A stretch of 63,275 bases of DNA, counting the filler, from Stramenopiles sp. TOSAG23-6 (lineage: Eukaryota), in assembly GCA_900128565.1 (NCBI GenBank). It is 7 parts of 7 records of this genome, joined end to end, with 100 filler letters (N's around TTAATTAATTAA, not from the genome) between each part and the next. Parts side by side here need not be neighbours in the genome. Positions count along the whole stretch, not along the records: positions 1 to 12,022 come from LT636225.1; 6 more parts are not named here. The stretch is one strand, 5' to 3'. The number at the start of each line of letters is the position of its first letter. The first letter of the stretch is position 1. Position numbers and translations under genes: made by a program. Below are positions 1-63,275 of this stretch, piece by piece. The notes under the pieces were generated by a model. The model was not told the origin of the DNA. It saw only the letters and a program-made list of their open reading frames with translations, and made no database searches.

Positions 1-94
1 TGGACACAAATAATTGTGCTTTGCGAAATAATCAATCATTTTATCCCTACGATCGGGAAAATTAATTGGACTGAAGAAGGCTAAAGTGAAAACA

Positions 95-1165
95 ATGGCT
101 AGAAAAAAAACACAAAAATCATCGAATGTGTCCAAAAGTTTAAAACGTGAGAAGACCAAAATGGAAGAAAACAAAACGATATTACAAGAAACATCTATTT
201 TACCAGAGGTAAGAATGTGCAATACTTCTAAACCAAATATATCAAGTATTATAGCAGATAAAAGTGAAAATGGATATTGTGATGTAAAGAATGAAGGTAG
301 CGATTATGAAGTAAAAAAGAATGTTAGTAATACTATTGAAACAAATATTATAGATGATATTGTACATACTAATAATACTATTGAAACAAATATTATAGAT
401 GAGATATCAAACGTAAGTAACATTGCTGTGAGAGATTTACCAAAATCTGTTCACTCTTCAATATCAAAAAAAATTAGACAGATGTTAAGAGAGAAAAAAA
501 TCAGACAAACCACATTGGCCAAAGAGTGGGGAATGTATGTTTTAATTGTTTTTTTCATACGAAATTTTGTACCTAAACAAAAATTAACAAAAATTCAAAT
601 TTTTTTTTTGAAATATTTTTATACAATACATGTTGAATAGTGTTGTCATATCACAATGGCTGGGTGGTAATATATTGACTCAGCATAACGTGGTAGTAGC
701 TGGTCAGAAATTGATCGTACGTTTTCAAACAAAATTGTTTCNTTTTTTTTTATATGAAATTTTGTACCTAACAAAACAAATTAAAAATGTTGGAAAAAAA
801 AATATTTTTAATAGTACAGGAATGGTATATACAAAATGGTGGTGATGTAACACTTGTACCAGAGAAATTGAAAGATGATTTGGAATCAAATGCGAATAAC
901 AAAAGGCTAAAAAAACGGAATGAAAATTCATCAAAAATACTAATGAAACAAGAAAATATTGTTTCAAAACAAGAAAATATTGTTTCAAAACAAGAAAATA
1001 TTGTTTCAAAACAAGAAAAGACTCTTTCAAAACAAGAAAATATTGTTTCAAAACAAGAAAATATTGTTTCATATAACTTTGATGAAGTCTATGAACATTT
1101 TCGCGTGATTCATACACGTGCTCGTCATAAAGCACAAATCAGTGTCACCGGTGCTGGTTTAGTAT
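95..1165 (+). CDS. Hypothetical protein with HTH-like segment (exons 95-534, 632-716, 820-~1165); 3' continuation uncertain
   Basis: Removing 535-631 and 717-819 joins three ORFs in frame, giving KKIRQTTLAKEWGMLNSVVISQWLGG (resembles a lambda-repressor-type HTH). Contains KQENIVS repeats. Confidence 0.5.
535..631 (+). mobile_element. Introner-like intron, GT...AT
   Basis: GGA AT|GTATGT...TACCTAAAC...AATACAT|G TTG; ATG duplicated at the junctions; frame restored. Confidence 0.8.
717..819 (+). mobile_element. Introner-like intron, GT...AG copy
   Basis: ATC|GTACGT...TACCTAAC...GTACAG|GAA; frame restored. Confidence 0.75.
946..1070 (+). repeat. 21-bp coding tandem repeat (KQENIVS)
   Basis: AAACAAGAAAATATTGTTTCA repeated about 6 times. 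Confidence 0.9.
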
Positions 1166-1255
1166 GTATGTTTTATTTTTTTTCCATTTCAATTTTTTTT
1201 CGTACGAAATGTTGTACCTAACAGTTTTTTTTTGAAATATTTTTCCAAAATACAT

Positions 1256-2101
1256 GTTCTGGGGACACAAGAAATTTTGCGATTGGCTGTGACAAATGGA
1301 TTATTCGAAACTCGAGTGAAACCTGTTTTTTATGTAAGTACTAATGGAATTTTCCCATATGGTACCGGGGAACGATTCAAAGAAGATTCAACACCAAGTG
1401 ATTATCATTTTTTCGATAATGGAAATCTTCGAGAGGATGTGGATGGATATGCAATTTCTAAATTTATTGCTGAAAATTTAACAAAACAAGCTCGAAGTCG
1501 AGGATTGCCTGTTACAATAGTCAGACCAGGTAATATGGCTGGTTGTTCTAAGACCGGTTCTTGGAATGAAACAGATTTCGTGTATAATTTACTATGTGGA
1601 TGTCTTTTACTTGGTGTTGTTCCGAGTGGCAATGAAGTTAAAAAATGGTTTTTTGATTTGACACCTGTAAATTTTGCTGCTGCTTCTATTATAAGCCTTA
1701 TTAAATATCCACAAAATTCTTTAGGTAGAGTTTTTCATATACAATCTCCACATCCTCATGTTGCAGCTACAAAGGTATTTACGTGGTTATGTAAAATTGG
1801 ATCATCAAAAGGATGGATTGTGCGAAGAAGTATGACAAATTCTAAGGCAACATCAATGAATGAAGTTTCACTTGATACATTCAAAACAATTTTGCAAAAA
1901 TCGGCGATGAATGAATTTGAACAAGTGGGAGAATCGAATGTAATTCAACGCTTGTTTGCAGGTTTTGATTCATTTATATACTATTTAAAATCACCACCTA
2001 TATTGGATTCCACCCAGTTACATCGTGAAGTGGATGGTAAAATTTCACCTTGTACAAAACTTGATGAAAACTTGTTGAAATTGTATATGCAAAACTCATG
2101 A
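1256..2101 (+). CDS. C-terminal part of a thioester reductase (NRPS/Lys2-type extended SDR) domain
   Basis: Motifs VLGTQEILRLA, YVST, GYAISKFIAE (YxxxK), IVRPG and DLTPVNFAA. The N-terminal Rossmann half is not found upstream. Confidence 0.8.
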   Translation, partial: VLGTQEILRLAVTNGLFETRVKPVFYVSTNGIFPYGTGERFKEDSTPSDYHFFDNGNLREDVDGYAISKFIAENLTKQARSRGLPVTIVRPGNMAGCSKTGSWNETDFVYNLLCGCLLLGVVPSGNEVKKWFFDLTPVNFAAASIISLIKYPQNSLGRVFHIQSPHPHVAATKVFTWLCKIGSSKGWIVRRSMTNSKATSMNEVSLDTFKTILQKSAMNEFEQVGESNVIQRLFAGFDSFIYYLKSPPILDSTQLHREVDGKISPCTKLDENLLKLYMQNS

Positions 2102-2345
2102 CTGTTTTCTTATCAACATTTGTACAAAAACTTGATGAAAACTTGATGAAATTGTATATACAAAACTCATGGGTGGTACATTTTTTCTATTATAAATGTT
2201 TCTTTTTGTAATATATAGTCGCAAAAACATTCTAATTATTTTTTGATAAAAAATTTTGTACTTTACATCACATGAATATGAAAACAAAAGTTTAATTTTA
2301 TATATGGACGGTTTAATTAAAACGTAATAGAAACTATTATTAATA

Positions 2346-3302
2346 CTACACATCATTATGGATACTACTTTCGTAAGTAGGTATGATATATTTAATGTTA
2401 ATGTAAGCATTATCCCCACCAGCCTTTTCAAAAATATCTAAAGTTTCTTCTATCAAAGCACAAAGAGTACCACCTTCACCTCTTTTATAACCAATTAAAT
2501 CTGTATCATCTTCTTTGTCTGAACCAAATGAATCAGTACATAAAACATTTGGGGCATTAACGAGGTAATAATTACATATTGGTAGAAGAAATTTATAATA
2601 TTGGACAAGTTCGATGTAGTACAAAAGAATATATCAAATATAAATTTGTTAGGTACAGAATTTCGTACCAAAACAAAAATGGAGTAGATACGAAACAAAA
2701 ATGCAGATAAACTAAAAATGATGAAAAAGTACATTCCTGCTTCTGGTGCGTTTGCTTTAACAAGCCACTGCAACACCTTTAACATTCGAGTGATTGATGC
2801 AGGTTCTTTAGTATCTAACACGCGTTTTGCTGGCATGATTAATTTAGGAAGAAGTTCTATTATTGTATCTTTATTCACAAATTCTAATAAACCTTGAAGA
2901 GAATTTTGTACCATGTTATGTGAAAAATATGATTTGATATTTGTTAGGTACAGAATTTCGTACCAAAAAAAAAAATTGAAATTCCCTAGTGACAACAAAC
3001 ATGAACGAAAAGGGCTCTTCAGTTTCTACAAGGCCATCAATAAACATCGGTAATAAATAAGGGATGTCTAAGTCTTCCATTTTGCAATCCCAAATGATTG
3101 TGCGTACACCACCTTCAAACGAAACACGAAGTGGCAACGTACTTCTCTGATACTCTCGGCGAAATTGAGTCTCAATCTTGACTACTTTCTTTTTTTTTCC
3201 ACTGCCAGACTTTGAACTCTTAGAAGGACTACGAGATATAGTTTTTGGACGCCTTGCACCTGCAGTACTTATAGACCTCGATGTTAATGCACCACTATTC
3301 AT
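2346..3302 (-). CDS. PACRG: Parkin co-regulated (axonemal) protein family; introns 2913-3000 and 2614-2732
   Basis: FRREYQRSTLP, LLPMFIDGLVETEEPFSFM, LVQYYKFLLPICN and GGDNAYINIKYIIPTYES. Both introns are GT...CAT. Confidence 0.8.
2614..2732 (-). mobile_element. Introner-like intron, GT...AT
   Basis: GGA AT|GTAC...TACAT|C GAA gives AGIELVQYY; only AT is duplicated. Confidence 0.8.
2913..3000 (-). mobile_element. Introner-like intron, GT...AT
   Basis: TTC AT|GTTTGT...AACAT|G GTA gives EEPFSFMVQNSLQGLL. Confidence 0.8.
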
Positions 3303-3558
3303 TTTGTGCTTAAATATTGGTGACAATTATTGTCAAAGACAAAATGCTTGAGAGTATATACTAGTTCGCAGATATACTGTATAGTACCTAAAGCTAGAGA
3401 GAAGGCTAAAAAATAGCAAAAAATAAAAGTGAAACCGTTGTTGTCAACGGAAACTACTGATAGTATATACTATAGGCTATATATAGTGCTTCAGCTACAA
3501 ACGAACAAAAAAGAAATTAGAGGTTTCTGTTTTATTTTTGATGAAATAGCATCTGTTA

Positions 3559-6055
3559 ATGCTGATGCAACTAAAAAAAACTAATATGTATTATAGTATT
3601 GTTACTTTTATATTTTGGGCTTTATATAGATCAGAAATAGTATTGGCAGCTTGCCCAAACAATTGTTCTAATCATGGACTATGTTCCAGTTCCAAATGCA
3701 CTTGCTTTCATGGTTTTACTGGAAGTGATTGTTCTAGAAGACATTGTAACGTTGGACGTGCGTGGTTTGATGTTGCTAGTGCAACAGATGTAGCACATCA
3801 AGATAATATTGAGTGTTCTGGAATGGGTTTCTGTGACCAAATGACTGGAATATGCCGATGCAGACCTGGTTTCTCTGGTTGGGCGTGTGAAAGAATGGAT
3901 TGTCCAAAAGATAAACAACATAGGGACTGTAACGGACATGGTACCTGCACTACGATGAGAGAAGCTGCTGAAGGTTTTGATGGCTATCGGTTAATAAACC
4001 CATCTACTACATATTCATTATGGGACGCAGATAAAATTATGGGTTGTATTTGTGATGAAGGTTGGTCTGGATATATATGTTTTCATTTTTAATTTCAATT
4101 TTTTTTTTGGTATTATTATTATTAGGGTATTCGGTATACCTAACGATTTTTTTTTCTACAATATTCTTTCACTATACATGATTGTGGTGAACGAAATTGT
4201 CCTTCTGGCGATGATCCTTTAACTACTACTGGTGTAGATGAAGTACAAACATTTCAGTGTGCTTGTACCAATTGCAATGAAGGAACATACCAATTTTTAT
4301 TTCGTGGATCTTCATCTAGTGCGATATCCTATAATGCAACACAAGCTGAAGTAGAAACTGCAATTGAAGCCATGAATACAATTGACTTTGTCACTCTTTC
4401 TTGGTCTATTGCTGGTGGTGCAATTGATTCTACATCACAAGTGTGTGGATCTGATAGTAGGACTCTTGCCATAACATTTAATTCTGAAAGTGGAGATATA
4501 CCAGATTTAATTGCAAATTCAGAATCTACTGATATCAGTCTAACAGTTACAGAAGATACAAAAGGAACAAAAGAAAATGCACCTTGTAATAATCGAGGAT
4601 TTTGTACCACAGATCGACTAAGTGAATACGGGGGTACATATATGTTTTATTTTTTTTTGCATTTCGAATGTATTCTTATTTTCATACGAAATTTTGTACC
4701 TAACAAAAAATAGTACAAAAACAAATATTTTTTCACAGTACATGCAATTGTGTTGATCTTGGTATCATTGCATTTTTATCTAGTAATGGTAAAGGTGAAC
4801 TTGGAAATAGAGGTGATTGTGGAGTAAGTAAGCCAGGAGTTACTATTGCCAATTGTCCTTTATCATCATTCACTACTACTGGTACTGATTTTTGTGCAGG
4901 ACATGGAGTCTGTGATTCAACTACAAAAGTTTGTACTTGTTACCCCGGCTGGAAAGGTCATAATTGTGAGTTACGCAAATGCCCTTTAGCAAAAGCTTGG
5001 TTTGATGAAGCTACTGGTGCTAACACTGCACATGCATTAGCAGAATGTGCAGCACGTGGGACGTGTGATGTACGTTTTCATCTCAATTTTTTGTTTAATT
5101 TTTTTTTCATACGAAATTTTGTACCTAATGAGTTTTTTTTTGAAATATTTTTTCATAATACATGCCGGGACAGGAAAATGTTCATGTCAGGATGGATTTG
5201 AAGGTGCAGATTGTTCTCGTTTGGCTTGTCCCATGTCTGCTTCTGGTATTTGTGGTGGTGTAGGTAGATGTATATCAATGAGAGACTTGGCATCTGCAAA
5301 TGGCAAAATATATGGTGCTACAGGAAGTGGTGATACTGTGTGGGATGCAGATATGATGTATGGTTGTAATTGTGATCAATATTCAGATAATTACAACACA
5401 TACGCAGTTGGTGGACGTTCAGGAGATGCTTCAGGTACTGGCCAAAACTTTTTTGGGTACAATTGTAGTCGACGCCAATGTCGTTCTGGCCCTCAATTAG
5501 CATGTAATGGTAGCCCTACAGATATGGAAGCCCAAACAATAGTTTGTTCATTAACAGCAGGTTCTTTCACTTTATCCTTTTCATCAATGACAACTTCAAG
5601 TATCTCTTTTGATGCAACAGCTGCTACATTGCGTACTGCATTAATTGAACTTTCAAATATTGGTGATGTAAATGTAACATTTTCAGCTGGAACTTCACTT
5701 TGTACATCAGGTGGAACAAATACAGTTACTATTGATTTTCTCACAGAATATGGAGATGTATGTTTTATTTTTTTTCAAATTCAATTTTTTTTTCATACGA
5801 AATTTTGTACCTAACAAATTTTTTTTTAAATATTTTTCCAAAATACATGTAGCAGAATTTACCTCATCAAGCGGCAGTGTAATTGTGGATGAATCTACAA
5901 AAGGAACTCGTACAATAGAGGAATGTTCAGGTAATGGATATTGTAACTATAAAACTGGATTATGCCAATGCAATAAAGACTATGGTAGTAGTGACGGGAA
6001 TGCAGGACAAGGGAAATTGGGCGATTGTAGTTATCGAAATATGTTATTAGAATAA
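3559..6055 (+). CDS. Secreted EGF-like/tenascin-like cysteine-rich protein; introns 4075-4179, 4640-4743, 5070-5163, 5758-5848
   Basis: Signal peptide, CPNNCSNHGLC, ECSGMGFCD..TG.C.C, WDADKIMGCICD and CPSGDDP motifs; all four removals keep frame and Cys spacing. Confidence 0.85.
4075..4179 (+). mobile_element. Introner-like intron, AT...AT
   Basis: GGA TAT|ATATGT...TATACAT|GAT TGT gives GWSGYDCGERNCPSGDDP. Confidence 0.8.
4640..4743 (+). mobile_element. Introner-like intron, AT...AT
   Basis: ACA T|ATATGT...GTACAT|GC AAT TGT gives GTCNC. Confidence 0.8.
5070..5163 (+). mobile_element. Introner-like intron, GT...AT
   Basis: TGT GAT|GTACGT...AATACAT|GCC GGG ACA gives GTCDAGTGKCSC. Confidence 0.85.
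5758..5848 (+). mobile_element. Introner-like intron, GT...AT (near-consensus copy)
   Basis: GAT|GTATGT...CATACGAAATTTTGTACCTAAC...AAATATTTTTCCAAAATACAT|GTA. Confidence 0.85.
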
Positions 6056-6372
6056 AAAGAAATAAAGACTTTTTATGTTACTTTTAAAATATGGTTTTAG
6101 AATAATACAAAGTGAATCAATTCAGTGTTTAATAATTTCCATATTTCAAATAAGATTCCTAATTTTGTTAAAAATAGATAATGTATATACTACTACGACT
6201 AGTAGTGGAATTTTATTCAAGAAAAAAAAAAAATCGAAAAAAAAAAAGAAAAAAAATCGATAATAAAAAAAAGAGCATTATTATTATGTAACCGTCTGGT
6301 GGTCTCTGAAAATAAACGCTTCTTATCTAAATCTTATTTCCTAGCTAGTTTCTCAGAATCAGAACGACAGAG

Positions 6373-6843
6373 ATGAAACGTACAATGAAAATAGCCAAGT
6401 CTCAGTACATATATACTTACATATTAGCTTTTTTCATTTTATCATTTTCATACGTAGTAGAAGCATCAAAGAAACGAGCGAGAAAAAAACGTAAGTCAGT
6501 CAATGCACCAACAAAATTCCTAAAACTTATATTTTGGGCATCTTTATTTGCATTTATTCCACTCATGTGTGTGACTCTTTATCGGCTGTATAATGACCCA
6601 GCTATCCCACGTATTTGGGCAATTGCGCAACGCAAAATTAAAAAATCATTAGCCGCTAGTTTAACCGAAACAACAGAAAAAGAAAACAATGACGGAAGAC
6701 AAAATAACGTTGAAAAGAAAGACGTAAAGAGTTCTGGTACACTTACCTCTGAAAGTAGAGTGCGAAAACGAATTGTATCTCCAACAAAAACAGTCGTATC
6801 CACGCCTGTAAATTCTATTTCATTCCCTCCCTCTGGAGTATAA
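6373..6843 (+). CDS. Hypothetical small membrane protein
   Basis: 156-aa ORF with an N-terminal hydrophobic segment and a second TM-like segment. Confidence 0.55.
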   Translation: MKRTMKIAKSQYIYTYILAFFILSFSYVVEASKKRARKKRKSVNAPTKFLKLIFWASLFAFIPLMCVTLYRLYNDPAIPRIWAIAQRKIKKSLAASLTETTEKENNDGRQNNVEKKDVKSSGTLTSESRVRKRIVSPTKTVVSTPVNSISFPPSGV

Positions 6844-6946
6844 AAGATTTCCCGGTACAACATCCTATAAAAAAAAATAAATAAAAAGTTATTCAAATTT
6901 ATTCAAATGTATTCAAAATTTTATGAAAATAAAGGACACTCCTTTA

Positions 6947-7876
6947 TTAATATCTTCCTCCTCCGCCTCCATCACGTCCACCATCATTGTAGCCACCGCG
7001 GTCTTGACGATCATATGATCTGTCATCCCTTCCTCCAGATCTGTCATCTCTTCCTCCAGATCTGTCATCTCTTCCATATCTGTCATCCCTTCCTCCATAT
7101 CTGTCATCCCGATCTCTTCCACGTCTGTCATCATATCTGTCATAATCACGATCTCTTCCATAATCGCGATCACGTCCTCTGTAACCTCAAGTAATGTGAT
7201 AAAATATTTCATGAAAAAAATCTGTTAGGTATAACATTCTCTATGAAAAAAAAAAAAAAGTGTAAGGTCAAAAAAAAAAACATACCGCCACCACCACGAT
7301 AGCCGCCACCACCGCCGCCGCGATAGCCACCACCACCTCGAGGGGGACCACCAAAACCTGGATCTTCATCGCATCCTCCAGTGACTTGTTCAGCCCGGTA
7401 TTTACCCTTGCGTTCATCGAATATTTTTACAAATTCAACTTGAGCTCCTTCCTTGAGGCATGTATTATGAAAAATATTTCAAAAAAAATCGTTAGGTACA
7501 AAATTTCCTACGAAAAAAATAAATTCGAAATTCATGATGAAAACGTACATCTGCCATCTTCAATGCAGGAGAAGTGACAAAAGACATCTTCTCCACCAGC
7601 ATCAGGGGCAATGAACCCAAAACCACGACGGTTCCAACGCTGAGCAACACCTTTGACGCGTTCCTGACCACCGCCTTGCCCATTCATGGCACCACGATCG
7701 TCCTGAGCACGATCACCAGTGCGACCTCTGGAACGAGAACGGGATCTGGATCTGGAACGGGAACGAGACCTGGAGCGTTTGTCTCGTGCTCCATTTACTG
7801 GAGCAGTTTCCTTCTCCAATTTTTTAGCCGCATTGCGCGGGCTACGTCTTGGGCTGTTGGCTGGACTTGCTGACAT
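6947..7876 (-). CDS. Cold-shock domain RNA-binding protein with RS and RGG/RD-rich regions; introns 7460-7548 and 7186-7285
   Basis: KGVAQRWNRRGFGFIAPDAGGEDVFCHFS; after splicing DGRCLKEGAQVEF...KYRAEQVTGG. Confidence 0.9.
7460..7548 (-). mobile_element. Introner-like intron, GT...AT
   Basis: AGA T|GTACGT...AATACAT|GC CTC AAG GAA GGA completes the cold-shock domain. Confidence 0.85.
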
Positions 7877-8251
7877 TTTATCTGTGTATTTTACAATACA
7901 GATTTTGATCAACAACAAAGCGCGCACCGAAGAGGAGGAGGAGGAAGCACTCTGATCTCTTGACTTGAGACACATTTTTTTGGACTGGTTGAATAATTTC
8001 GTACCTAATTGGTACGGGAAAAAAAAAAAGTCAGTGGAGCGACTTTTTTTCCTTCCTCTTCGCGACCACGGTAGTTAGCTAGGGTTAGGGTTAAGATGAG
8101 TTCCTGGCCATTCTTCTTGAAGACTTCTTCAGCCTGTCAACTCACAAACAGTACAAAATAGATACTAATACCTACTNTCAACAAAATACAGTTTTTCTTG
8201 TCGTTAATACATTACTTATTATTCCTTCATATTTTAGAATAGAAGAAAGCG

Positions 8252-10855
8252 ATGTTGGCAGTTCCTCTGAGAAAGACAAAGGATGCGGATCTTTTTCGCC
8301 CATTAAAGATAATGATCCAAAGAGATCAAGGTGTGTCCTTTTTTAAGAAAGTACGTGGTAAAGATTCAACCAAAGAGCACGACCGTGCACTGCAGGTGTT
8401 CAATTCTCTGCGTGATCAAATGGTTTCCGTGCTTAATTCTGATGAAATTACTTCGGAGAAGTTACAAACTCTCTATGGTTATTATGCTCAGTGTGAATAC
8501 GCAAAACGCCGCTTTGTCGGGGCTCCCATTCGAGTTCACTGGTATAATGCCTTTCTCGGTGGAGGTGGGACGCGTAAAGCCTCAGTAGACTCTTTAGAAA
8601 ATCTTCAAATAAGTAATGGTTTTGACAATGAACAACAAAATGTTCTTTACAACATTGCCGCATATGAAGGGCTAATTGGAATATACACAGACCGAAGCAT
8701 TCCTTCCGGATCAAAAGACTCTGCGCGACATTTTTCCATTGCTGCAGGTATATTTGAATATTTGGCCGCACAGCAAGAGTCTTCAACGAGTAATGCAAGC
8801 ACCTTAGCAGATCATCAAACAGAAACTCTCAGAGCATTTTCCCAATTGATGCTCGCGTGTAGTCAAGTTTGCTTCTATGAAAAAGGTGTAATAAGTAAAA
8901 TGAGCCCCAAAACTTTGGCACGTCTTGCACTTGGTGCAAAAGTACAGTTTGAGAAATGTATTGAACCAATGAGAAGCTTCGTTCCTTATGGAAAATGGAT
9001 ACACAAAATTCAACTACAAGTGCTTTGTTTTGAAGGTGCAGCTCATTATTGGCAATCTCATGTTGAGAAGGAAGCAGCACTTGCCAGTGGGAGTAAGTAT
9101 GGAATGGAAATTACTCGACTAAAAAAAGCTGAAACTTTAGTGATTCAAGCGGAGGCGTTAGGAAAGAGTCATTCTTTACCAAATACCTTATTAAGTTCTT
9201 GTACTGCCCTTGCTGATAAGATTCAGATTGTCATGCAAAGTGCAGTGGAAATGAATAATTCTGTATATATGGATATGATTCCCTCCTTACATGAATTGGC
9301 ACCTATTAAACCGGCAGTGGTTGCAAAAATAACTTCATTTGATTCATCTTGTCTTTTACGTGGTGGTAAAATTGCCCCAGAAGGTATCTTAGCTGTAGAT
9401 TTATTTCAAAATATAATTCCACATGAAATAACTAACGCCACTGTGGAATACGTACAAAGAGTTGAGACTATCGTAAATGAAATCAAGGAAGTTGTTTCAA
9501 CGGAAGGAGATTTAGCTAGAGCATCGCTTGCATCCCTTGGTTTACCCGCCGCAATTGATGCTGAAAGTGTCGGAAATGATCTTCCAGATTCTACTTGGTC
9601 GAAAGTGAGTGAAGTGCAATCATTAGGTGGAATAAGTGGAATTCAAGAAGATATAAAATTATCTGGAAAAACGTTGCAATCTATTCGTCATTCAATATCG
9701 TCCATACGTAAAGATTTGGATGTAGAGGAGAGTGAAGATAATACATATCGTAGTCAATATGGCAATAGATGGACACGTGTCATGTCAAAATCTTTGACTA
9801 TACCTTTTAGAAATGAAATAAAAGAGTATGAAGTTGTCCTAGAAAAAGCGGCACATGCGGATCGAAAGGTTGAGGAAAAGGCGTCTTCTTCTATGAGTCA
9901 ATTGGTACGATTGTCTGCAAGTAAAGCTCAACTTGACAGAGAAATGCCTGATGCTGATCCAGATGCAATTCGTGCGTCTGATTCTACAAAAGAAAACTTG
10001 CAAGCCTTGCTTATAGATCTGGGTAATAATATAAAAGAACGTGAAGAAATGTGTGAAAAGCTAAAACAAATGATTCAAACTACACCTGTTTCGTTAGGAG
10101 GTAAAGAAGGATCTAATGAGTGTTCTAGTCGAGTAGCTCTTCAAATGTCCATTCAAAAAGCGTTAACGAAAGATGGAATGCACGATGATGGTCATGGAAT
10201 GCTTGTTTTATCAGGTAAAGAAAAAGTGTTTGCCAAGGAAATGGAACCAATCACGTCAATGAAGGATGCGATACATGTTGGTGTTACGAGACAGAAAAAG
10301 TTATTAGAAGAAATAACTTCTGCCAATGATTTATTTTTGAAATCCAAAAATAAGTCATCTGAATCATCTCAACGTCAAGAATTTTGTCAATCAATTCTTT
10401 CAGGTTGTGATAAATTTCATGAGCTAAAGTCAAATGTGCGTGATGGGAAGGAATTTTATGAGGGGATTCTAAATCGTTGTATTGCCTTATCTCAGACTGT
10501 GAAAGACTTTTTATACACAAGATCAATGGAAACAAAAGAACTTATAGCTTCACTTGCTAAAGGTGTCCAAGCTACGCCAGCACTAGCACAACCATCTCCT
10601 CCCCCATATGAAGCTCCTGCTCAAGCTGTTCCTGTACAGAATTCTAGTAACATTGCACCTGGGCTTCCTGCGCCACCAGCTTATACTTTACCTCCTCCAT
10701 CAGCTCCACAATCCTCGGCACCACAATCACAGTATGAAATGGCTCTTGCTCAGTTGAGAAATATGGGTTTTGGTGATGAACAAGCTTCAATGAAAGCTTT
10801 ACAGCAAACAGGTGGTAAGGTAGAGCCTGCCGTAGAAATTTTATTGAGAGGTTAA
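8252..10855 (+). CDS. BRO1: ALIX/Bro1-family ESCRT adaptor (Bro1 + V domain + Pro-rich + UBA)
   Basis: MLAVPLRKT start, W.NAF, EQQNVLYNIAA, NNSVYMD, SLGLPAAID, YGNRWTR..S, GKEFY and C-terminal LRNMGF UBA; intronless. Confidence 0.9.
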   Translation: MLAVPLRKTKDADLFRPLKIMIQRDQGVSFFKKVRGKDSTKEHDRALQVFNSLRDQMVSVLNSDEITSEKLQTLYGYYAQCEYAKRRFVGAPIRVHWYNAFLGGGGTRKASVDSLENLQISNGFDNEQQNVLYNIAAYEGLIGIYTDRSIPSGSKDSARHFSIAAGIFEYLAAQQESSTSNASTLADHQTETLRAFSQLMLACSQVCFYEKGVISKMSPKTLARLALGAKVQFEKCIEPMRSFVPYGKWIHKIQLQVLCFEGAAHYWQSHVEKEAALASGSKYGMEITRLKKAETLVIQAEALGKSHSLPNTLLSSCTALADKIQIVMQSAVEMNNSVYMDMIPSLHELAPIKPAVVAKITSFDSSCLLRGGKIAPEGILAVDLFQNIIPHEITNATVEYVQRVETIVNEIKEVVSTEGDLARASLASLGLPAAIDAESVGNDLPDSTWSKVSEVQSLGGISGIQEDIKLSGKTLQSIRHSISSIRKDLDVEESEDNTYRSQYGNRWTRVMSKSLTIPFRNEIKEYEVVLEKAAHADRKVEEKASSSMSQLVRLSASKAQLDREMPDADPDAIRASDSTKENLQALLIDLGNNIKEREEMCEKLKQMIQTTPVSLGGKEGSNECSSRVALQMSIQKALTKDGMHDDGHGMLVLSGKEKVFAKEMEPITSMKDAIHVGVTRQKKLLEEITSANDLFLKSKNKSSESSQRQEFCQSILSGCDKFHELKSNVRDGKEFYEGILNRCIALSQTVKDFLYTRSMETKELIASLAKGVQATPALAQPSPPPYEAPAQAVPVQNSSNIAPGLPAPPAYTLPPPSAPQSSAPQSQYEMALAQLRNMGFGDEQASMKALQQTGGKVEPAVEILLRG

Positions 10856-10973
10856 TCAATAGCATGTCATTTTAAAAATATACGTTGATTCAATAAAAAA
10901 CACTAACCCTAATAACATTGATTCAATAAAATAATAGTAAAAGTGTAAAAGTTTATTATAATAGTAATCATAT

Positions 10974-11932
10974 TCAATCAACATCTTTATCAAGCATACT
11001 TTCAAAGCCTTTCCAAAGAACTGTAAAAAGTGCTCCCTGGAGTCCATTGGCTAATAAACGTGTGGATAATCCACGAAAAAATAGTTCTGACCATTGTTCA
11101 TGTGTAAGTTTCAGTATTGTTTTAAATGCTTCTTTTCTGATTTTTCGTTTTGGTGTTTGCTGTACTTGTTTGTTCATTTTTAAACCTTTTTGAGATCCGA
11201 CAACAACATGGATACTATTATAATACGATATTGATGTATGAAATGTTTGACGTACTGTTTTTGCAACTCGAAGAGAATTTGTTGTCGTATCAGATACTAA
11301 TGATGCTAAAAAACCAACTGTTGCATTTCTCAGTAATTTCCCTTGAAGCGTATCTATTTCTGGCAAATAATTATTAAGAGTATTATAGACAAAAAACCAA
11401 GTGTAATGTCCAATAAATGTTGCAGAAAAATGAAGTGATGAACCATGGAATAAAACACTAGGTCTCATTGATAAATCCTTTGTACCAATATTTGTTACCT
11501 GAGTAGAATTTGATGTAACATTCCAAGGAATTCTACATTTTTTTTGTAGTAATGAGAGGCCACTAATACCTTCAACTTGCATTACAGTTTTACATGCATC
11601 TAATGGCATTAACAAAATACGCCACCCAGCAGCAGCTGCTGCTGCTACAACTGATTTTGCAGTATTAGGAATATTTCGTGTTGGTTCGAAAGAATCTAGG
11701 GTATACAAAACCCCTGTATTAGCAGCAGTATCACCAAAGCGTCCAAGAGGTCCTAATATCAATGCAAAACCCATACCTTTATAAAATCGTCGAATCCCTC
11801 CCGCATTATATAAAGCTCGTATAGCTTGCATAGTAGTTGTGCCATAGCGGTATTGATAGTTCATTGTTGTTCTTAGCCACATAAGAGACCCTACTTGAGC
11901 AGCCATTGCTATCGCACCAGGAGCACCACCAC
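10974..11932 (-). CDS. Mitochondrial carrier family protein (5' partial)
   Basis: LMWLRTTMNYQYRYGT, GGIRRFYKG, RFGDTAAN, PLDACKT and LFFRGLSTRLLANGLQG; preceded by a degenerate element ending CAT at 11933. Confidence 0.85.
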
Positions 11933-12022
11933 ATGTACTTGTAGGACACATGCCAATGCTTTTTTTTTGTTAGCTACAAAATTGCTTATGAAAAAAAAAA
12001 AAAAAAAAAAAAAATTAAAAAA

Positions 12023-12122
12023 NNNNNNNNNNNNNNNNNNNNNNNNNNNNNNNNNNNNNNNNNNNNTTAATTAATTAANNNNNNNNNNNNNNNNNNNNNN
12101 NNNNNNNNNNNNNNNNNNNNNN
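12023..12122. other. Artificial contig linker (N-run, TTAATTAATTAA, N-run)
   Basis: The same all-frame-stop linker occurs at six places. Confidence 0.95.
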
Positions 12123-12219
12123 AAAAATATTTCAAAAAAATTCTAAAAAATTTGTTAGGTACGAAATTTCGTATGAAAAAAAAACTCGATTTTTTTGTTG
12201 AAAAAAAAAAAAAACATAC

Positions 12220-12881
12220 ATATGCTGATAACTAAAAGGAGTGGGTGTATCTACAATTCTTCCCATTCCAGCTGCAGCATTTAAAATACTTTTTGTTTCA
12301 TCAAAAATTTTCATATTAAATATAACACAATCAGTTTCACTTTGTTTTCCTCTCAGTGAAATTTTAGTCACAATGTATTGTAGAAAAATATTTCAAAAAA
12401 AAATAAAAATTGTTAGGTACAAAATTTCGTACGAAAAAAAAATTTTAAAAAATTTAAAAAAAAAAAATAATAAAACATACATATTAATTAATTCTTGTAT
12501 AACAATTCCAGGTCTAAAACTTGGTGAATACGGTTCTAAATAATCAATTTCAGATTCTCTCATCATCACTTTAATCGGGGGCATTCCTACAGGATCTTCA
12601 GCAAATTGCCGACTTCCTTTTTTAAACATTTTTGTTTTTTTTGTTTTACCTGCAGATATTACTGTTTTACCTTCATGAATGCATGGACATTTTGGAGGTG
12701 GGCTATGATCAATTGCAAACTGAGGTGGAGGAGAACGAGATTCACGGATAGATTGACGAATAAGTCCAAATGTGACATTTATCATTCGACAGATATTTAA
12801 CGCATCAGCAGCCATGGAATGACTATCTTTACCTCCAGCAACTTCATATTGTTTAATATATACACCCAATAATATCATCAT
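12220..12881 (-). CDS. Bestrophin-like (bacterial/UPF0187 type) fragment; intron 12373-12480
   Basis: GMGRIVDTPTPFSYQH matches the RIxxTPxPFxY motif; N-terminal part not seen, C-terminus cut by the gap. Confidence 0.6.
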
Positions 12882-24136: not shown

Positions 24137-24236
24137 NNNNNNNNNNNNNNNNNNNNNNNNNNNNNNNNNNNNNNNNNNNNTTAATTAATTAANNNNNNNN
24201 NNNNNNNNNNNNNNNNNNNNNNNNNNNNNNNNNNNN
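24137..24236. other. Artificial contig linker
   Basis: N-TTAATTAATTAA-N. Confidence 0.95.
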
Positions 24237-24341
24237 TTTTTTTTTTTTTTTTTTTTAGTTTTTTTTTTCATACGAAAATTTGTACCTAACATTTTTTTTG
24301 TTTTTGGTAAAAAAATTTTGAAATATTTTTTCATAATCCAT

Positions 24342-36199: not shown

Positions 36200-36299
36200 N
36201 NNNNNNNNNNNNNNNNNNNNNNNNNNNNNNNNNNNNNNNNNNNTTAATTAATTAANNNNNNNNNNNNNNNNNNNNNNNNNNNNNNNNNNNNNNNNNNNN
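36200..36299. other. Artificial contig linker
   Basis: N-TTAATTAATTAA-N. Confidence 0.95.
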
Positions 36300-42119: not shown

Positions 42120-43739
42120 TCATTTATCACTCGGAACAAATACAACACTGTTGCTTAGACCTTCATAATGATGATGCTCTTTTAGAGATTCGACAGTACC
42201 AATGTGTATAGTGAAAAAATATTGATGTTTGTTTTTGTTAGGTACAGAATTTTTTATGAAAAAAAAAATAAAAATAAATTTGAAATGAAATGAACAATGA
42301 CAACATATAAGCATTTCTTCTACCTTTCGGAAATTCATTTCAAGTTTTTCTTCAGCCTTTTTGCATGAATACTTTAACTTTTCTGGGACATTACTTTTCC
42401 CTTGATTCGAATTTTGATTCAAATTTTGACTAAAATCCTTTTTTTGAGGTTGGATTCCTGCAGGTTCTACTAATGCTAACGTCGAATAAATTTTTGACCA
42501 AGGGACTACATCACCAATAAGTAAAACTCGCTCATTGTCTACCGTTTCAAGCTCATGAGCTTTGATGTGTGCTAAGGCAACGTCTCTAACATCGATAAAT
42601 GCCTTCTCAAGCAAAGGAGAGGGTGGATTTAATGTATTTTGGAAAAATATTTCAAAAAAAAACTCGTTAGGTACAAAATTTCGTACGAAACAAAACTCGA
42701 GTTTGAAAAAAAATTAAACATACATGATTTTCCATTTATAAGCTGTAGAATTTGCTGAAGACTTTGATTGAGTTTAGGTTGTAAAGCAGGACCAAGAATT
42801 AGTGTTGGATTCATGTATTGTAAAACATATTTGTTTTTACGTAATAAAACAATGTTAAGTTTCTATGAAAAAAGAAATGTAGGTGAAACATTGAAATGGA
42901 CATTGAAATGGACATTGAAATGGACATTGAAATGACAACGTACATTACAACAAGTTTAAAAGGAGGTGATTTTGTTTTGATAAAATCCCACGCTGCTCTC
43001 TCCGCTCGAAGTTTACTCAGAGCATACCAATCTTCATGTGCTAATAATTCTGCATCGCTACTCCAATCATTCTCAGTAAATATATGGGAATCAGGTTTAC
43101 CTGTGTAACAATATACTGTAGCAGTCGAACTTGTGATAACAACACGTTCAACAGTGTATTGTGAAAGAAAAAAAATATTTTAAATCGTTAGGTACGAAAT
43201 TTCGTATGAAAAAAAATTAAATTGAAATTCATGATGAAAACATACGTTCTACTTTGAGCACAAGCACTGAGAATTCCAATAGTCCCTTCAATAGCTGGTG
43301 GAAGCATATTGTTTGAATTGTATTCTAAGTTGCCTTTTGCGACACTTGGAGCAGCGAGGAAAAACGGTGAAGCAGTATGAAACACACAACAACAATCCGA
43401 AATAGCCAAGTTGAATGAGTCAGGACGTGACAAATCTGCCTCGAACAATTTTAGACGCTGGAGAGCTCCTGGAAGGGACTGTAAATGCTTTATACGATCA
43501 CCCGTAAATTTGCGCACCGTGCCTCGCACATGATACCCCCTTTCTAGAAGTTGACGGACTAGTTCTGAAGCGAAGAAACCAGAAGCTCCTGTAACACACA
43601 CACGTTTTTTACGAACCAACAGGCGACGTCTCTGTGACAGGCGTGCCATAAGAGCTGCACCAGCGATTCCAGTAGCAACTCCAAATAAGAGCTTTGATAT
43701 TAGAGAACGATTTGGCATTTCCAATGCAATCATTGGCAT
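42120..43739 (-). CDS. NAD-dependent epimerase/dehydratase (DFR/CCR-like SDR); introns 43154-43245, 42813-42943, 42632-42723, 42204-42308
   Basis: VCVTGASGFFAS, VRGTVR, VFHTASP, RVVITSS, WYALSKLRAE, MNPTLILGP and FIDVRDVALAH. Confidence 0.9.
43154..43245 (-). mobile_element. Introner-like intron, GT...AC
   Basis: AGA AC|GTATGT...AATACAC|T GTT GAA CGT gives SRTVERVVITSS; AC duplicated. Confidence 0.8.
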
Positions 43740-44010
43740 CTTCACTACGACGTCACTCAGCAAAAAAAAGAAACAGGAAATGAGGTTAAAGAAGAGTACG
43801 AAAATACCTTGGACAGTGGAGTCGCGAGTCAGACGAATTGGCAAAAAATGTCATTTTTTTTTTAACAGTTACTGTCATATTTTGAGTGATCACGTGAATA
43901 TGTTGACGTTGACATCATATGATATCTTTTACATGAACCTTCCGGGAAAAAAAAAGGAAAGATTTTTCTGACAATTTGAAATTGCAAAGTTGCAATCCTA
44001 TCTTTACCCC

Positions 44011-45850
44011 ATGTGGTATGTTTTCCGAGTACATCTCATCATATTTGCACTAGTTTATACGTGCATTGCGAATGCTCTTGACAACGGTCTAGCACGCACA
44101 CCACCACAAGGGTGGAGCACTTGGAACACTTTCGGTTGTGACATCAGTGAGAAGCTATTGTTGGAAGTGGCAGACGCCATAAAAAAACGAGGCATGTTGG
44201 ACATGGGCTATGACCTACTCAACATCGATGACTGTTGGGCTTCCAAGACGCGTGATGCTGTAACTGGTCGCATGGTCGCTGATCCTGTACGCTTTCCAAG
44301 TGGTATGGGAGGGCTTGTAAAAAACTTGCATGCCAAAGGTTTTCGAGTTGGGCTTTATACAGACGTCGGTTCGAAAACTTGTGCTGGTTACCCCGGAAGT
44401 GGTCCTTATGGAGGTAAACATCGCTTGAGATCCCGTAATCAACAATACGCAGAAAATGCTACAACAGCAAGCGAAGAAAATGTGATGACCAAAAAAGAGA
44501 ACAATTTTATACTGGACGCCAAAACATTTGCAGATTGGGAAATTGACTATCTAAAAATAGATAGGTGCTATGAAACTTCACAAGAAAAAAATGAACCTTG
44601 GGAGTTCTATACCAATTTTTCAGCTGCACTTAATGCCACGGGACGACCTATCGAAGTCTCAATATGCAACTGGGGCTTCAAGAAACCATGGACGTGTACG
44701 TTTTTTTCATCATGAATTTCAAATTTATTTTATTTTTTTCAAAAAATTTGTACATTACAATTTTTTTTTTAAATATTTTTTCACAATACATGGGCAAGTA
44801 ATATCGGAAATCTTTGGCGGACAACCACTGATATATTTCCAAGCTATCAGCGTGTAATTACTGTGTTAGATGAACAGGTACAACTTGCACCATTCGCAGG
44901 TCCTGGTCATTGGAATGATCCAGATATGTACATTTCCTTCATTCAGGTCCAAATTTCAATTTCGAATTTTTTTTTTGTACTAAATTCTGTACCTAACGAA
45001 TTTTTCTAATTTGTTTTTTCAAAATACATGCTCGAGGTTGGTGTAAAAGGAAATGTAATGAACTATAAATATATGCCAAGCACTGAACTCACAATTTCAG
45101 AATCTTCGCTTCACTTTTCGATATATGTTTTCATCATGGATTTAAATTTTTTTTTTTTGGCACGAAATTTTATACCTAACAAAATGTCAATTTTTAAAAA
45201 TATTTTTCCAAAATACATGTGGGGTATGCTTGCAGCTCCACTCATCGCAGGTGCTGATATTCGCACAGTTTCGGATGACTTTTTGAAAATTCTCACAAAT
45301 GCTGAAATAATTCATACAATCAATCAAGATCCACTAGGTATACAAGCAACACGAGTGTACTTTTTCAACACGAATTTTTATTTTTTTATTTTTTTTTCAT
45401 AGAAAATTTTGTAAGTAACGATATTTTTATTTTTTTAAATTTTCACAAAACATATCTCAAACGAAATCAGGAAGATTCGTACCTGCCATACTTATACCTG
45501 AGGAATTCATGGGCCATGCATCTTTCTGTTATGGAACATGTAAACGAATAGAAGTATGGGTTAAACCTCTTGTAAATGGACGAGCTGCCGTGGCATTACT
45601 CAATGTTGGAGATCAGTTTACAGATAAAAGTAAAGACTTCAAGGCTGAGAACGTGTCTATTTCAGTAAGTGACATCATTGGTCTTTCGCCATCAGATGCT
45701 CCATTTTGTGTACATGATGCGTTACGTCACATTGATACTGATGAAAGGCTGACTATGAATTCAGTACTTTTGCGAAAACAAATACCTGTACATTCACATG
45801 AGCTTTTATTGGTTGAATCATGTACTATACAAGAAGAGGTAATTAGATAA
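44011..45850 (+). CDS. Alpha-galactosidase, glycoside hydrolase family 27; introns 44696-44791, 44928-45029, 45123-45218, 45357-45453
   Basis: LDNGLARTPPQGWSTWN, NIDDCW, IDYLKID; after splicing GNLWRTTTDI, WNDPDMLEVG and HFSMWGMLAAPL. Confidence 0.92.
44928..45029 (+). mobile_element. Introner-like intron, GT...AT, inside WNDPDMLEVG
   Basis: GAT AT|GTACAT...AATACAT|G CTC GAG GTT GGT. Confidence 0.88.
45123..45218 (+). mobile_element. Introner-like intron, AT...AT
   Basis: TCG AT|ATATGT...AATACAT|G TGG gives HFSMW. Confidence 0.82.
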
Positions 45851-48242: not shown

Positions 48243-48342
48243 NNNNNNNNNNNNNNNNNNNNNNNNNNNNNNNNNNNNNNNNNNNNTTAATTAATTAANN
48301 NNNNNNNNNNNNNNNNNNNNNNNNNNNNNNNNNNNNNNNNNN
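48243..48342. other. Artificial contig linker
   Basis: N-TTAATTAATTAA-N. Confidence 0.95.
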
Positions 48343-48443: not shown

Positions 48444-51046
48444 ATACACTGCCTTCATTGATACAATTATCACAAGTTTTGTTGCAACCTGTCTTTTGAA
48501 ATTTTTCTTCAAAATGCTTTAAAAGAAGTTGGCGTCGGCAAATGACGTCATTTTCACAATATTGTAACATTTGCTTTAATTGATCCATTTGTCGTCGGAT
48601 TTCACTTGGTTGTGCTGTCTCGCTTTTATTAATTAAAAATTCGTGAAGTTTTTTGTCTCCATAATTATAAAAAAGAATACATTCGGCTTTGCGCCCGTCC
48701 CTCCCTGCTCGTCCAGATTCCTGATAATAGCCTATTATAGATTTTGGCATAGAAAAATGAACTACGTATCTTACATCAGGTTTATTAATACCCATTCCAA
48801 AAGCAATAGTGGCAACAATCACTTTACATCTATCTTTTGACCAACGCTCATATATTTTGGAAAAATATTTCAAAAGAAAAAACTAAAATTTGTTAGGTAA
48901 AAATTTTCAAAAAAAAAAAAAAAAATTAAAAAATTAAAGATACATGTTTCTCTCTTCTAAGTTGTTTGTCTTCTATACCCGCATGATACCATTCTACTGA
49001 ATTTTCAAGTTTTGTACCTTTCAATGCTTCAAGAAGACCTTGTGCAACATCTTCCACCGCTTTCCGAGTTCCTGCGTACACAATACCTGACTCATTTGGA
49101 TATCGCAAACAAATCTTTGCAATTTCTTTTAAGGTTGTTTTTTTCCCTTTTTTGAGAAACACATCATATGTTAAATTCGGTCGATTAAAACTAGTTGAAA
49201 ATTGTCGAGGATTTCGCATACAGAGATTTTTCTTGACATCTTCTTGAACAGCTTTCGTTGCAGTTGCTGTTAAGGCCATTAATGGAACATCTGGAAAAGT
49301 TTGTTTCAGACAGTTTAAACGCATATAGTCTGGTCTATAATCATGACCCCATTGAGAGACACAATGAGCTTCATCAACAACAAACATGCTCAAGAGACCT
49401 CGACTATTCAGTCGCTCAAATTGTTGCATCAAACTACTACTTGCAGCAATTTTTTCAGGTGTTACATACAAAACTTTTAATTCATTACGAGCAACTTGGC
49501 CCCAGATTCGACTTGACTCCTCAAACTCCATTGCACTATTTAGCGTGTTTGCTGCAATGTCATTTTGTTGTAGATCCATCACCTGATCCTGCATCAATGC
49601 AAGCAAAGGAGATATTACTATGGTCAAACCTGGGAGTAAAACAGCTGGCAACTGGTAGCATAGACTCTTTCCTCCACCAGTTGGCATTAATACAAAAAGA
49701 TCGTGTCCTTCTAGTGCTAATTTTACTACTTTTTCTTGTACTAAACGAAAGCGATCATGACCAAATTTGTTTTTCAATTCACGTCGAATTTCAATATCAC
49801 TATAACTTTTTCTATTACTCATGCTACTTCTAGAAATTTCATAATTGTTGTTGTAGTCATTATTTGTATTATTGTATTGATTTCCATTCTGATAGTTATT
49901 GTTGTAGTCATTATTTGTATTATTGTATTGATTACAAGAAGAGTTGCTACAATCGCTTATATTCCGACTCAGATCAATCACATCATCACATTTTTTCATA
50001 TTCGTATTATTATTTTGATTAAAACTATTTTCATCATCAAAACTATTTATACGATCGAGCCTAGTTGAGTGATTACAGTTAGACATTTTAGAATCCGTAT
50101 CATTCTTATTGTTTGTCATGTTTTTTTTATATGTTTTTTTACAATCCGTATCATTAGGGTTAGGGTTATTGTTTGTCATGTTTTTTTTATATGTTTTTCT
50201 CTCTTTTTTAAGTAGACTTCTTCGTTCTGTGAGATTTTTAATACGAACATGCAGCATTTTTCCACGTTTTGTTTCTTGTTCTTCGAAAGTCATTTCATCC
50301 CATGTATCTTCCGCGTCAAGTAAGTTTCCAGATACTTGATCGTATGTATTTTAGAAAAATATTTGAGAAAAAAATTTGAAAAATTTGTTAGGTACAAAAT
50401 TTCGTATGAAAAAAAAATTCGAGTTTTTTTTTCCGAAAAAAAAAATAAAACATATACTCTCGTTGTATGTCTTGAAATGACTTTCCAGGTAACCCTAACC
50501 CTACATTTATTGTGCCTACTGTTGTTTCTAGTTGCATTGAAGAATTTGGATTCATAGTATTATCTCTATTTTGATTGAAATTGTTACATTGGTTGTTTTG
50601 ACTTTTAGTAGTAGTTTTTGATAAAGCAAACTCTTTGTATGCGCATTCTGGAATATGTATTTTGGAAAAATATATTTGTATTATTTTTGTAGAAAAAAAA
50701 TCGTTAGGTACAAAATTTACTATGAAAAAAAATTTGAAATTTGAAAAAAATAAAACATACATCCTCCTCAATAGTCATTTGTGGGATATTTTCCGATTTC
50801 TGAGACAACTGCTTTTCTTTATATGTTGCGGCCTCTACTTTGTCCATTTCCTCCATAATATCTCCGTAATCTTCATCATAATCAGAAAACAAATCATCTT
50901 CGTCTTCTTCCACATTATGAATTGTTGGTTTTTTATCATTTGTTTTGTTTAAAGAATATCCAATCGTAGTAGTAAGTTGTGTAGGTTTCGTGTTATTGAA
51001 TTGTTGTGTAGGTTTCGTGTTATTGAATTGTAGAGATACCTTTTTC

Positions 51047-60197: not shown

Positions 60198-60267
60198 GTA
60201 CGTTTTCATTATGAATTTCAAATTTATTTATTTTTTCGTACGAAATTTTGTACCTAACAAATTTCGA

Positions 60268-60367
60268 NNNNNNNNNNNNNNNNNNNNNNNNNNNNNNNNN
60301 NNNNNNNNNNNTTAATTAATTAANNNNNNNNNNNNNNNNNNNNNNNNNNNNNNNNNNNNNNNNNNNN
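60268..60367. other. Artificial contig linker
   Basis: N-TTAATTAATTAA-N. Confidence 0.95.
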
Positions 60368-61965: not shown

Positions 61966-63275
61966 ATATGAGCTCGCTTCAAGTCATGTAAACTTTTTAC
62001 GTATTTTTTACTACGCGTACGTGGAGTTGATTGAAACATAATTTTGATTTCTCTACCTAATTTTTGTGTGTTTGAATTTTTGTTTTTTGTACTTAATTTT
62101 TGTGTGTTTGAATTTTGTAACTGTAAACACTCTTTCAACTCAATCGCACAAATTTTATTCTCATATAAAGTTACCTGGTACTGTGCATGTATATTTTTGA
62201 AATATGCAATACATGTATTTACTTTTGTTAGATAAAAAAGTGAACTACAAACAAAATAGTTACACAATATATAAATGTTCTATAAAAAAAATATTTAAAA
62301 AAAAAAAAATCGAAATTGAAAAAAAAAAAATTGAAATGAGTAATACAATAATAATGGTAAAATACATGACGGATATTTTCATCAAGGATAGGCAAATGAT
62401 TACTCTTGGTATTTTTTATCAAATGACTCATGTTATTATACTGTTTATCTATAGAATGATTTTCGGACATTTTCTCTAGTGTCTCGATTTCTTGCAGTGC
62501 AACTAATTTTGCTATTTCTTGTTGTCGTCTATTTAATGTGAACGATATATATATATATATATTTGTTAGGTACAAAATTTCGTATAAAAAAAAAAATAAA
62601 AAAAAATAAAAATAAAAAAAATAACTTATCTTTCTCAATTTTTGTAACTCTTTTTTCTGTAACGCTGACAAACATCTCTTCATTGGATTAGGGTTAGGGT
62701 TCTTCATTGGGTTTGGGCTACTTTGTGTACTATCCTGTAGACCATGTATTTTGGAAAAATATTTCAAAAAAAAATTTTAAAATTTGTTAGGTACGAAATT
62801 TCGTACGAAAAAAAAAATCGAATTTGAAAAAAAATAAAACATACATGTATATCATTCTGTTCTTTGTGTTGATTCATTTCATCAGAATTATCTTTTGTAT
62901 TGGAATGATAAATACTTGACTCAATTGTTCCATGATGTTTGCTAATCGAATGCACTCCTGTAACATTACTTTCTTTAGTGTTATGTTCAATATTATGTAA
63001 AGCTTTGTTGATTTTATGAACTTCTGCCTCAACGGCATGTTCAATATTATGTTCAATATTATGTATTTCATTCATAGCTTTATGAGCTTCTGCTGCAACA
63101 GCATGTTCAATATTTTGTAAGTCATTCTTAAGTTTATGAGCTTCTGCTCCAACGGCATGTTTAATATTATGTTCAATATTATTTAACTCATTATTGATTT
63201 TATGTGCTTCTGCTCCAACAGCATGTTCAATATTATGTTCAGTATTATGTATTTCATTCTTAAGTTTATGAGCTT
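61966..63275 (-). CDS. Hypothetical protein fragment with His-rich NIEHAVxAEAHK repeats; introns 62744-62844, 62531-62629, 62187-62365
   Basis: The frame is continuous after removing the element copies. Confidence 0.45.

Follow-up and report, generated by a model that had tools for sequence, protein, structure and literature searches.

A 63,275-nt stretch of DNA from Stramenopiles sp. TOSAG23-6 (assembly GCA_900128565.1), hereafter the window, carries one repeated, introner-like family of introns of about 100 nt, and this family as a whole needs no terminal G at its 3′ end. Five of its copies begin with A instead of G. These A-start copies would be ordinary members of the one family in which a G-to-A transition has occurred at position +1. 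A U2-type, yeast-like spliceosome would remove all the copies, using RTAYGT to recognize the 5′ site and CCTAAC to recognize the branch, and placing the 3′ cut two bases beyond the ..TAC of the element, whichever bases stand there. If the A-start copies share the register of the rest of the family, as we infer, they are AT...AT introns, with one AT...AC.

The window is AT-rich eukaryotic DNA (~33% GC) in which the motif TACCTAAC is present 48 times where 0.88 would be expected, the occurrences sitting in this family. From 40 copies a profile was made and run with nhmmer (E<=1e-3) over both strands of the 63-kb window, giving 64 matches. Borders were taken from the profile for 47 complete copies, a few being corrected by eye or by RNA, and three copies were added to give 50; the statistics on positions and registers were counted over 49 copies. 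Each of the 50 complete copies sits in an open reading frame (ORF) of 120 aa or more that is open only once the copy is removed, and always on the sense strand of the host ORF (50/50). Their lengths range from 88 to 133 nt (median 99) and are distributed over all three phases (20/16/13, n=49). Many of these mutually similar introns stand in unrelated host genes, among them those for an EGF-repeat protein (3550-6052, Pfam EGF_Teneurin and EGF_2), a GH27 alpha-galactosidase and a DSPc-like phosphatase.

The family consensus was RTAYGTTT ... TACCTAAC ... CAMAATAC followed by 2 nt or, written with its flanks and with slashes for the borders, (C)AT/GTAYGTTTTATTTTTTTT ... TTTCGTACGAAATTTTGTACCTAAC ... 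GAAATATTTTTCMAAATACAT/G. In the register of this alignment (the family register, or register 0) the first dinucleotide is GT in 43 copies, AT in 5 and GA in 1, so that position +1 holds G in 44 copies, A in 5, and C or T in none. Conservation at +2, +3, +6 and +7 exceeds that at +1, with T at +2 in 48/49 copies and at both +6 and +7 in 49/49; G stands at +5 in 41/49. At the other end, A is found at -2 in 45/49 copies and C at -1 in 2/49, and the terminal pairs comprise GT-AT, GT-AG, GT-GT, GT-TT, GT-AC and AT-AT/AT-AC. The 3′ cut falls in a conserved 10-nt motif, CAMAATACAT, and its distance from the branch A of CTAAC is not fixed: it spans 31 to 51 nt, with a median of 39.5 nt (n=40).

The coordinates of the A-start copies and their host genes are collected in Table 1. 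Copies 4075-4179, 4640-4743, 45123-45218 and 50455-50344 (-) read ATATGT...CAT, just as the earlier note on this DNA had described them. Two further copies had been named there as probably starting with AT. For 42308-42204 (-) the A start (ATATGT) was found, and the end is ATACAC in the family register, CAT being obtained only with a shift of +2. The AT start of 62629-62531 (-) was also found (ATAAGT...AAAT by family alignment), but moving the borders by +4/+13 gives an alternative GT-AG form, 108 nt long, that likewise preserves the frame and leaves the ORF open, and this copy was therefore set aside. Copy 4075-4179 contains ATATGT...TACCTAAC...ACAT, interrupts an EGF repeat (..GWSGY/DCGERNCP..) and has no GT-AG or GC-AG pair within +-15 nt of its borders. 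Copy 4640-4743 is flanked by a 6-nt direct repeat, GTACAT. Once the copies are removed, 50455-50344 (-) lies inside an ORF of 981 aa and 42308-42204 (-) inside one of 181 aa.

Table 1. Family copies discussed in the text and two of their host genes (a slash marks a border in the family register).
Feature	Position	Strand	Description
EGF-repeat protein gene	3550..6052	+	703-aa ORF after removing 4 family copies (4075, 4640, 5070, 5758)
Alpha-galactosidase (GH27) gene	43972..45847	+	495-aa ORF after removing 4 family copies (44696, 44928, 45123, 45357)
A-start copy	4075..4179	+	ctggatat/ATATGTTT..CTATACAT/gattg, 105 nt
A-start copy	4640..4743	+	gggtacat/ATATGTTT..CAGTACAT/gcaat, 104 nt
A-start copy	45123..45218	+	ttttcgat/ATATGTTT..AAATACAT/gtggg, 96 nt, GH27 gene
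A-start copy	50344..50455	-	acgagagt/ATATGTTT..AAATACAT/acgat, 112 nt, upstream exon ends GT
A-start copy	42204..42308	-	105 nt, upstream exon ends TT; AT-AC (..ATACAC/) in family register, AT-AT at +2
Diverged family copy	62531..62629	-	ATAAGT...TTAAAT, 99 nt by family alignment; nhmmer E=8.4e-12
GT-start family copy	7189..7285	-	excised as GT...TT (or TA...TG), 97 nt, RNA
RNA-joined copies	2732-2614, 4075-4179, 4640-4743, 5758-5848, 7285-7189, 7548-7460		exact at predicted borders

The excision of family copies was followed in RNA. Exon words of the region 2500-8100 are contained in 13 seawater metatranscriptome runs from 5 studies, and contigs from four runs (X1, X2, X3 and X6) were aligned to window 1-12000; uncovered stretches and family-internal chimeric joints (e.g., 1252->5785) count neither way. 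The 6/6 copies with RNA joints, two A-start copies included, are joined at exactly the borders that the family alignment had predicted. At 4075, record 23 of X6 joins 4072 to 4178 and skips 105 nt. At 4640, contigs of X1 and X2 join 4633 to 4738 and skip 104 nt, with 6 ambiguous places for the joint, a range that takes in 4640-4743; the length matches neither of the GT-AG alternatives there (105 and 95 nt). The nearest GT-AG pair at 4640 had been said to give a frameshift, which is true of GT4634/AG4738 (105 nt), whereas GT4644/AG4738 (95 nt) stays open. The earlier note had proposed cDNA junctions as the check on the A-start introns, and RNA contigs from runs of two studies splice 4075 and 4640 exactly. 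Additionally, record 16 of X3 is unspliced over 3897-4306 and shows 0 differences from the window, A at 4075 included; this A is therefore no assembly error. No unspliced contig over 4640 was seen among the contigs of the four runs.

These contigs bear directly on the view that the A-start copies are artefacts or are not spliced at all, the A being an assembly error, or the copies being retained, or being cut from the DNA like internal eliminated sequences (IES-like, TA/AT-flanked). The 2-nt direct repeats and the inverted ends of the copies do resemble DNA elements. An assembly error is contradicted by the independent RNA contig that carries A at 4075, and retention by the spliced contigs for 4075 and 4640. 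Excision from DNA is contradicted by the sense orientation of all complete copies, which it would not need, and by the unspliced RNA contig; the 5′ and branch signals, moreover, are conserved. This view is largely refuted and has hardly any probability left.

A third A-start copy was supported by protein homology. The GH27 protein, spliced at the predicted borders, gave a gap-free alignment to 8 homologues across all four junctions. At 45123-45218 the junction reads HFS[M]WGMLAAPLIAG, against HF[ST][LM]W.. in the homologues, and Pfam Melibiase_2 lies on the exon that follows. That the A-start copies are genuine introns, cut out exactly, thus has support of different kinds: RNA for two of them, homology for one and ORF continuity for the rest. 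The protein level separated register 0 from the register two bases upstream (-2) at no copy, none of the comparisons being decisive. The two registers are synonymous at 44696 and 50455; they give V or I at 45357, where the homologues carry V, I or L, L or I at 21725, and R or H at 30543, where no homologue alignment was obtained. A homologous-protein search with exons 45455-45847 and 30637-30912 gave no matches, and exon 30267-30542 had 0 matches in the PDB. One Logan protein, P0001 (234 aa, 100% identical), has the length expected for exon 1 reading into the intron; it is probably unspliced and hence gives no junction.

The first and last G of an intron pair with each other as the exons are ligated, and are therefore among the least variable features of nuclear splicing. 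In this family, 16/49 copies have no GT-AG, GC-AG or AT-AC reading whatsoever, so that a relaxed last base is needed in any case; the 16 include 44696 and 45357, and for both of these the GH27 alignment fixes the length. The seven copies that end in AG are GT-AG in the family register only. One of the copies with an RNA joint, 7285-7189, is excised as GT...TT: the joint 7187->7285 skips 97 nt (both=1), the piece lengths of X2 record 12 add up, and an in-frame AG only 3 nt downstream is passed over (cut as GT-AG, the intron would measure 100 nt, window 7186-7285). It is the sole RNA-supported copy in which the -2 (..-AC) register is excluded. The spliceosome therefore accepts a last base that is neither G nor C, given this joint and the 16 copies. 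Of the earlier proposal that neither terminal G is required, the part on the 3′ end holds family-wide; for the A-start copies, AT...AT is a candidate for the pair actually cut. The A-start copies by themselves do not force a relaxed interaction of an intron's first base with its last, since AT-AC drawings are available for them and an A-C pair is tolerated. Because A-C substitutes for G-G, the case for that relaxation is made by the GT-start copies and not by the A-start copies.

A purine at +1 and varied 3′ dinucleotides would also be explained if a divergent minor (U12-type) spliceosome spliced the whole family, in which case UACCUAAC is the sequence with which U12 would have to pair. RTAT at +1..+4, TT at +7..+8 and the CCT-AAC branch resemble the U12-type consensus sequences RTATCCTT and TCCTTAAC. 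According to PMC1557818, U12-type introns of the RT-RN class include AT-AT, GT-AT and AT-AA ends, and the family shares with these the terminal pairs, the purine at +1 and the A at -2. The signature itself is absent, RTATCC and RTATCCTT being found in 0/49 copies, and TCCTTAAC and TCCTTGAC have 0 occurrences in the window. The branch A lies 31-51 nt from the 3′ end, against a norm of ~10-20 nt in U12-type introns, and both GTATGT and CTAAC are yeast-like U2-type signals. Since the family makes up nearly every intron in the window, the main spliceosome must process it. The U12-type reading is accordingly improbable, and the missing U12 signature and the U2-like look that had been pointed out for these introns were both borne out. 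We prefer the U2-type spliceosome described at the outset.

The flanks of the copies determine how precisely the cuts can be placed. In 34/49 copies, against 23.9 in shuffles, upstream exon and intron end in the same 2 nt; these matches are AT/AT in 31, GT/GT in 2 and AC/AC in 1. The non-AT matches number 3 against 0.39 expected by shuffling (P=0.0035). The GT/GT copies, at 16390-16487 (+) and 47402-47298 (-), and the AC/AC copy, at 43245-43154 (-), carry direct and not inverted repeats, and hint most clearly at a 2-bp target-site duplication. AT being self-complementary, a duplication and an extension of the inverted repeat look the same in most copies. The flanks read (C)AT/.../G, so that the empty site would be CATG. 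The 2-nt repeat is likely to be the 2-bp target duplication of a DNA element with GTA..TAC ends and the target C-AT-G. The terminal 4 bp, GTA(Y)/(R)TAC, pair in 83.6% of cells with covariation not above shuffles, and no empty site was seen.

Longer repeats were also observed. At 4634-4639/4738-4743 (+) and at 32822, 34683 and 62844 (-), 6-7 nt of the intron 3′ end ((A)ATACAT or GTACAT) recur at the exon end. Repeats of 4 nt or more are present in 6/49 copies, above what a 2-nt duplication alone would give, and may reflect a target preference for ..ACAT/G. In the GH27 gene, 44928-45029 and 45123-45218 (+) each split an ATG Met codon (AT/G), which fits insertion into CATG/ATG sites. The Met at the 44928 junction (NDPD[M]LE) is M in 7/8 GH27 homologues, and that at the 45123 junction (HFS[M]W) is M in 1/8, with L or F in the others.

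As a consequence of the repeat between exon end and intron end, several drawings of an intron yield the same mRNA. Copy 4075-4179 may be drawn as 4073-4177 (AT-AC), 4074-4178 (TA-CA) or 4075-4179 (AT-AT), and 45123-45218 likewise as AT-AC (-2), TA-CA or AT-AT (0). Seven registers are equivalent for 4640-4743, including AT-AC (4638-4741) and AT-AT (4640-4743), and 0/7 are GT-AG. For 50455-50344 (-) the strictly equivalent registers are TA-CA, AT-AT and TA-TA only; at -2 (GT-AC) or +2 (AT-AC) the mRNA differs by a synonymous base only (..REYD..), the candidate products being ..GAGAGT/ACGATC.., ..GAGA/ATACGATC.. and ..GAGAGTAT/GATC... The family register is favored because one register accounts for all 49 copies. 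RTAYGT in register 0 would also fit a universal-type U1/U6 better.

The drawings can be turned into a different account of the A-start copies, in which both cuts are made two bases upstream (ATATATGT...TAC/AT) and 42308 stays as it is (ATATGT...CAC/). Each would then be a U2-type AT-AC intron in which the known A-C pair is kept; the AT repeat would let the register slide without a change in the mRNA, and only thus would the G-to-A change be harmless. A strictly equivalent AT-AC reading, with otherwise U2-type sites, exists in 4/5 A-start copies and a synonymous one in the fifth, and the mRNA does not reveal the actual cut. In addition, 42308, which starts with A, also has the rare C at -1. According to PMC13326754 an A-first/C-last pair is isosteric with the G-G terminal pair, and U2-type AT-AC introns (type II; SCN4A, SCN5A) are listed in PMC1557818 as isolated cases, 24 in five genomes. 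Against this account, the proportion of 4/5 is no enrichment, given that 26/49 family copies have an AT-AC reading; two registers would be required in one family; the spliceosome of the family demonstrably takes a last base other than G or C; and 50455 at +2 begins with ATGTTT, a poor 5′ site. We regard this account as somewhat less likely than the family register.

Returning to the family register, the following points weigh against it and against the machinery proposed. For 4075, 4640 and 45123 the AT-AC drawing two bases upstream gives an identical mRNA, and its 5′ end, ATATAT, still matches RTAYRT. The sole A-start copy whose family-register end is other than AT, 42308 (upstream TT), ends in AC, when C at -1 is so uncommon in the family. 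Copy 50455 is directly followed by AC, which supplies its synonymous AT-AC reading at +2, and the availability of AT-AC readings, in 26/49 family copies, extends to 4/5 A-start ones. RNA covers 4075 and 4640 among the A-start copies, and not 45123, 50455 or 42308. The RNA support consists of assembled contigs (depth ~3-11) and not of raw reads, and it thus shows that the joined form is present, not its share. The GT-TT joint at 7285-7189 comes from one contig of one run. Finally, no Rfam match of any kind, and so none to small nuclear RNA (snRNA) genes, was obtained in the window at gathering thresholds. With all this considered, the chances that the A-start copies are cut in the family register, as AT-AT, are about evenly balanced. 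The wider proposition, that the major spliceosome reads neither terminal nucleotide, cutting before R-TAYGT and two bases past TAC, so that AT...AT (an A-U pair) is spliced as well as GT...AT, GT...GT and GT...TT, is put forward only tentatively.

The family was compared with known systems. The introners of Huff et al. are reportedly transposon-derived intron families in Micromonas, Aureococcus, dinoflagellates and others. The copies in the window are like them in being many near-identical short introns, in sense orientation in unrelated genes and with their own splice signals, and, apparently, in their ends, which are short and inverted (GTA..TAC) and flanked by a direct repeat of 2 nt that is lost together with the element. 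Unlike introners, most copies in the window end in AT and not AG, and about 10% start with A. No description of introners with GT-AT ends was found in a literature search, and a second search, on introners with AT-AC, did not describe this family among the matches listed. In euglenid nonconventional introns a stable stem joins the ends, and no 5′ or branch signals are conserved. The family differs in that GTAYGT and CCTAAC are conserved and RNAalifold gave 0 pairs over 45 copies; an RNA stem joining the intron ends was also rejected in view of a 4-bp terminal pairing without covariation above shuffles.

Genome-scale non-GT/AG introns with a U2-type spliceosome are described, in PMC13326754, for the larvaceans Fritillaria borealis and F. 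pellucida, with GT/AG introns under 10% in F. borealis. The same question of which first and last base pairs are tolerated arises here; unlike in Fritillaria, the 5′ site is a strong GTATGT-type GT in 43/49 copies, only the last base is odd, and the organism is a protist and not an animal. The A-start copies resemble U2-type AT-AC introns by an A start in a U2-type 5′ site and an AC end, 42308-42204 fitting in the family register and three copies if shifted by 2 nt; they differ because in the family AT-AC is only one of two drawings giving the same mRNA. From the U12-type RT-RN introns they are set apart by the missing RTATCCTT and the remote branch motif. Introners and Fritillaria-type non-canonical introns are already known, and among such introns the A-start copies form a variant.

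The mirusviruses, intron-rich viruses with some AT-AC introns and the branch WCTAAC according to PMC12768974, were considered as a lead; the genes looked at were of ordinary cellular types, viral hallmark genes not being searched for. A viral contig collection scanned for the family gave 0 matches. A scan of the JGI metagenome contig collection gave 4 loci, with a true copy at one of them only (L003:290-480, -), which reads ..aaacATGTATGTTTTAG...CACAATACATGgtc and has the borders CAT/GT...CAT/G, as in the window copies.

Some further observations were made in the window. Spacers of the form N44-TTAATTAATTAA-N44 stand at 12023-12122, 24137-24236, 36200-36299, 48243-48342, 60268-60367 and 61772-61871, and partial family copies lie beside them, for example at 12123-12226, 24255-24347, 36133-36199/36300-36360, 48177-48242/48343-48455 and 60188-60265; the assembly apparently broke within the family repeat at the spacers. 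At 15711-15769 (+), a family copy is represented by its 5′ half (GTACGTTTGATATGAATTTC...CGTACC), which stops before the branch motif, near the start of a 1429-aa ORF. The copy 21346-21452 (+) has a GAACGT 5′ end, with A replacing T at +2, and its ORF is open after removal; its equivalent drawings are AT-AC (-2), GA-AT (0) and GT-AC (+4). In the gene at 6950-8074, which contains Gly/Tyr/Arg-rich repeats (6996-7100, -), RNA contigs carry in-frame deletions of 21 nt (7073, X2) and 60 nt (7038->7099, X3) that look like population repeat-length variants rather than introns.

The family illustrates the spread of a mobile intron without AG. If neither terminal base is read, it would be a natural system in which the interaction of an intron's first base with its last is dispensable and a mobile element gives all the positional information. 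Gene prediction limited to GT-AG would break most genes of the organism, and the borders of the A-start copies are not readable from mRNA alone where the flanks repeat. With dozens of natural variants of one intron that have common 5′ and branch signals, the acceptable terminal pairs are directly testable, and the A-start copies are of value as an allelic series, supplied by nature, on the rule for first and last bases.

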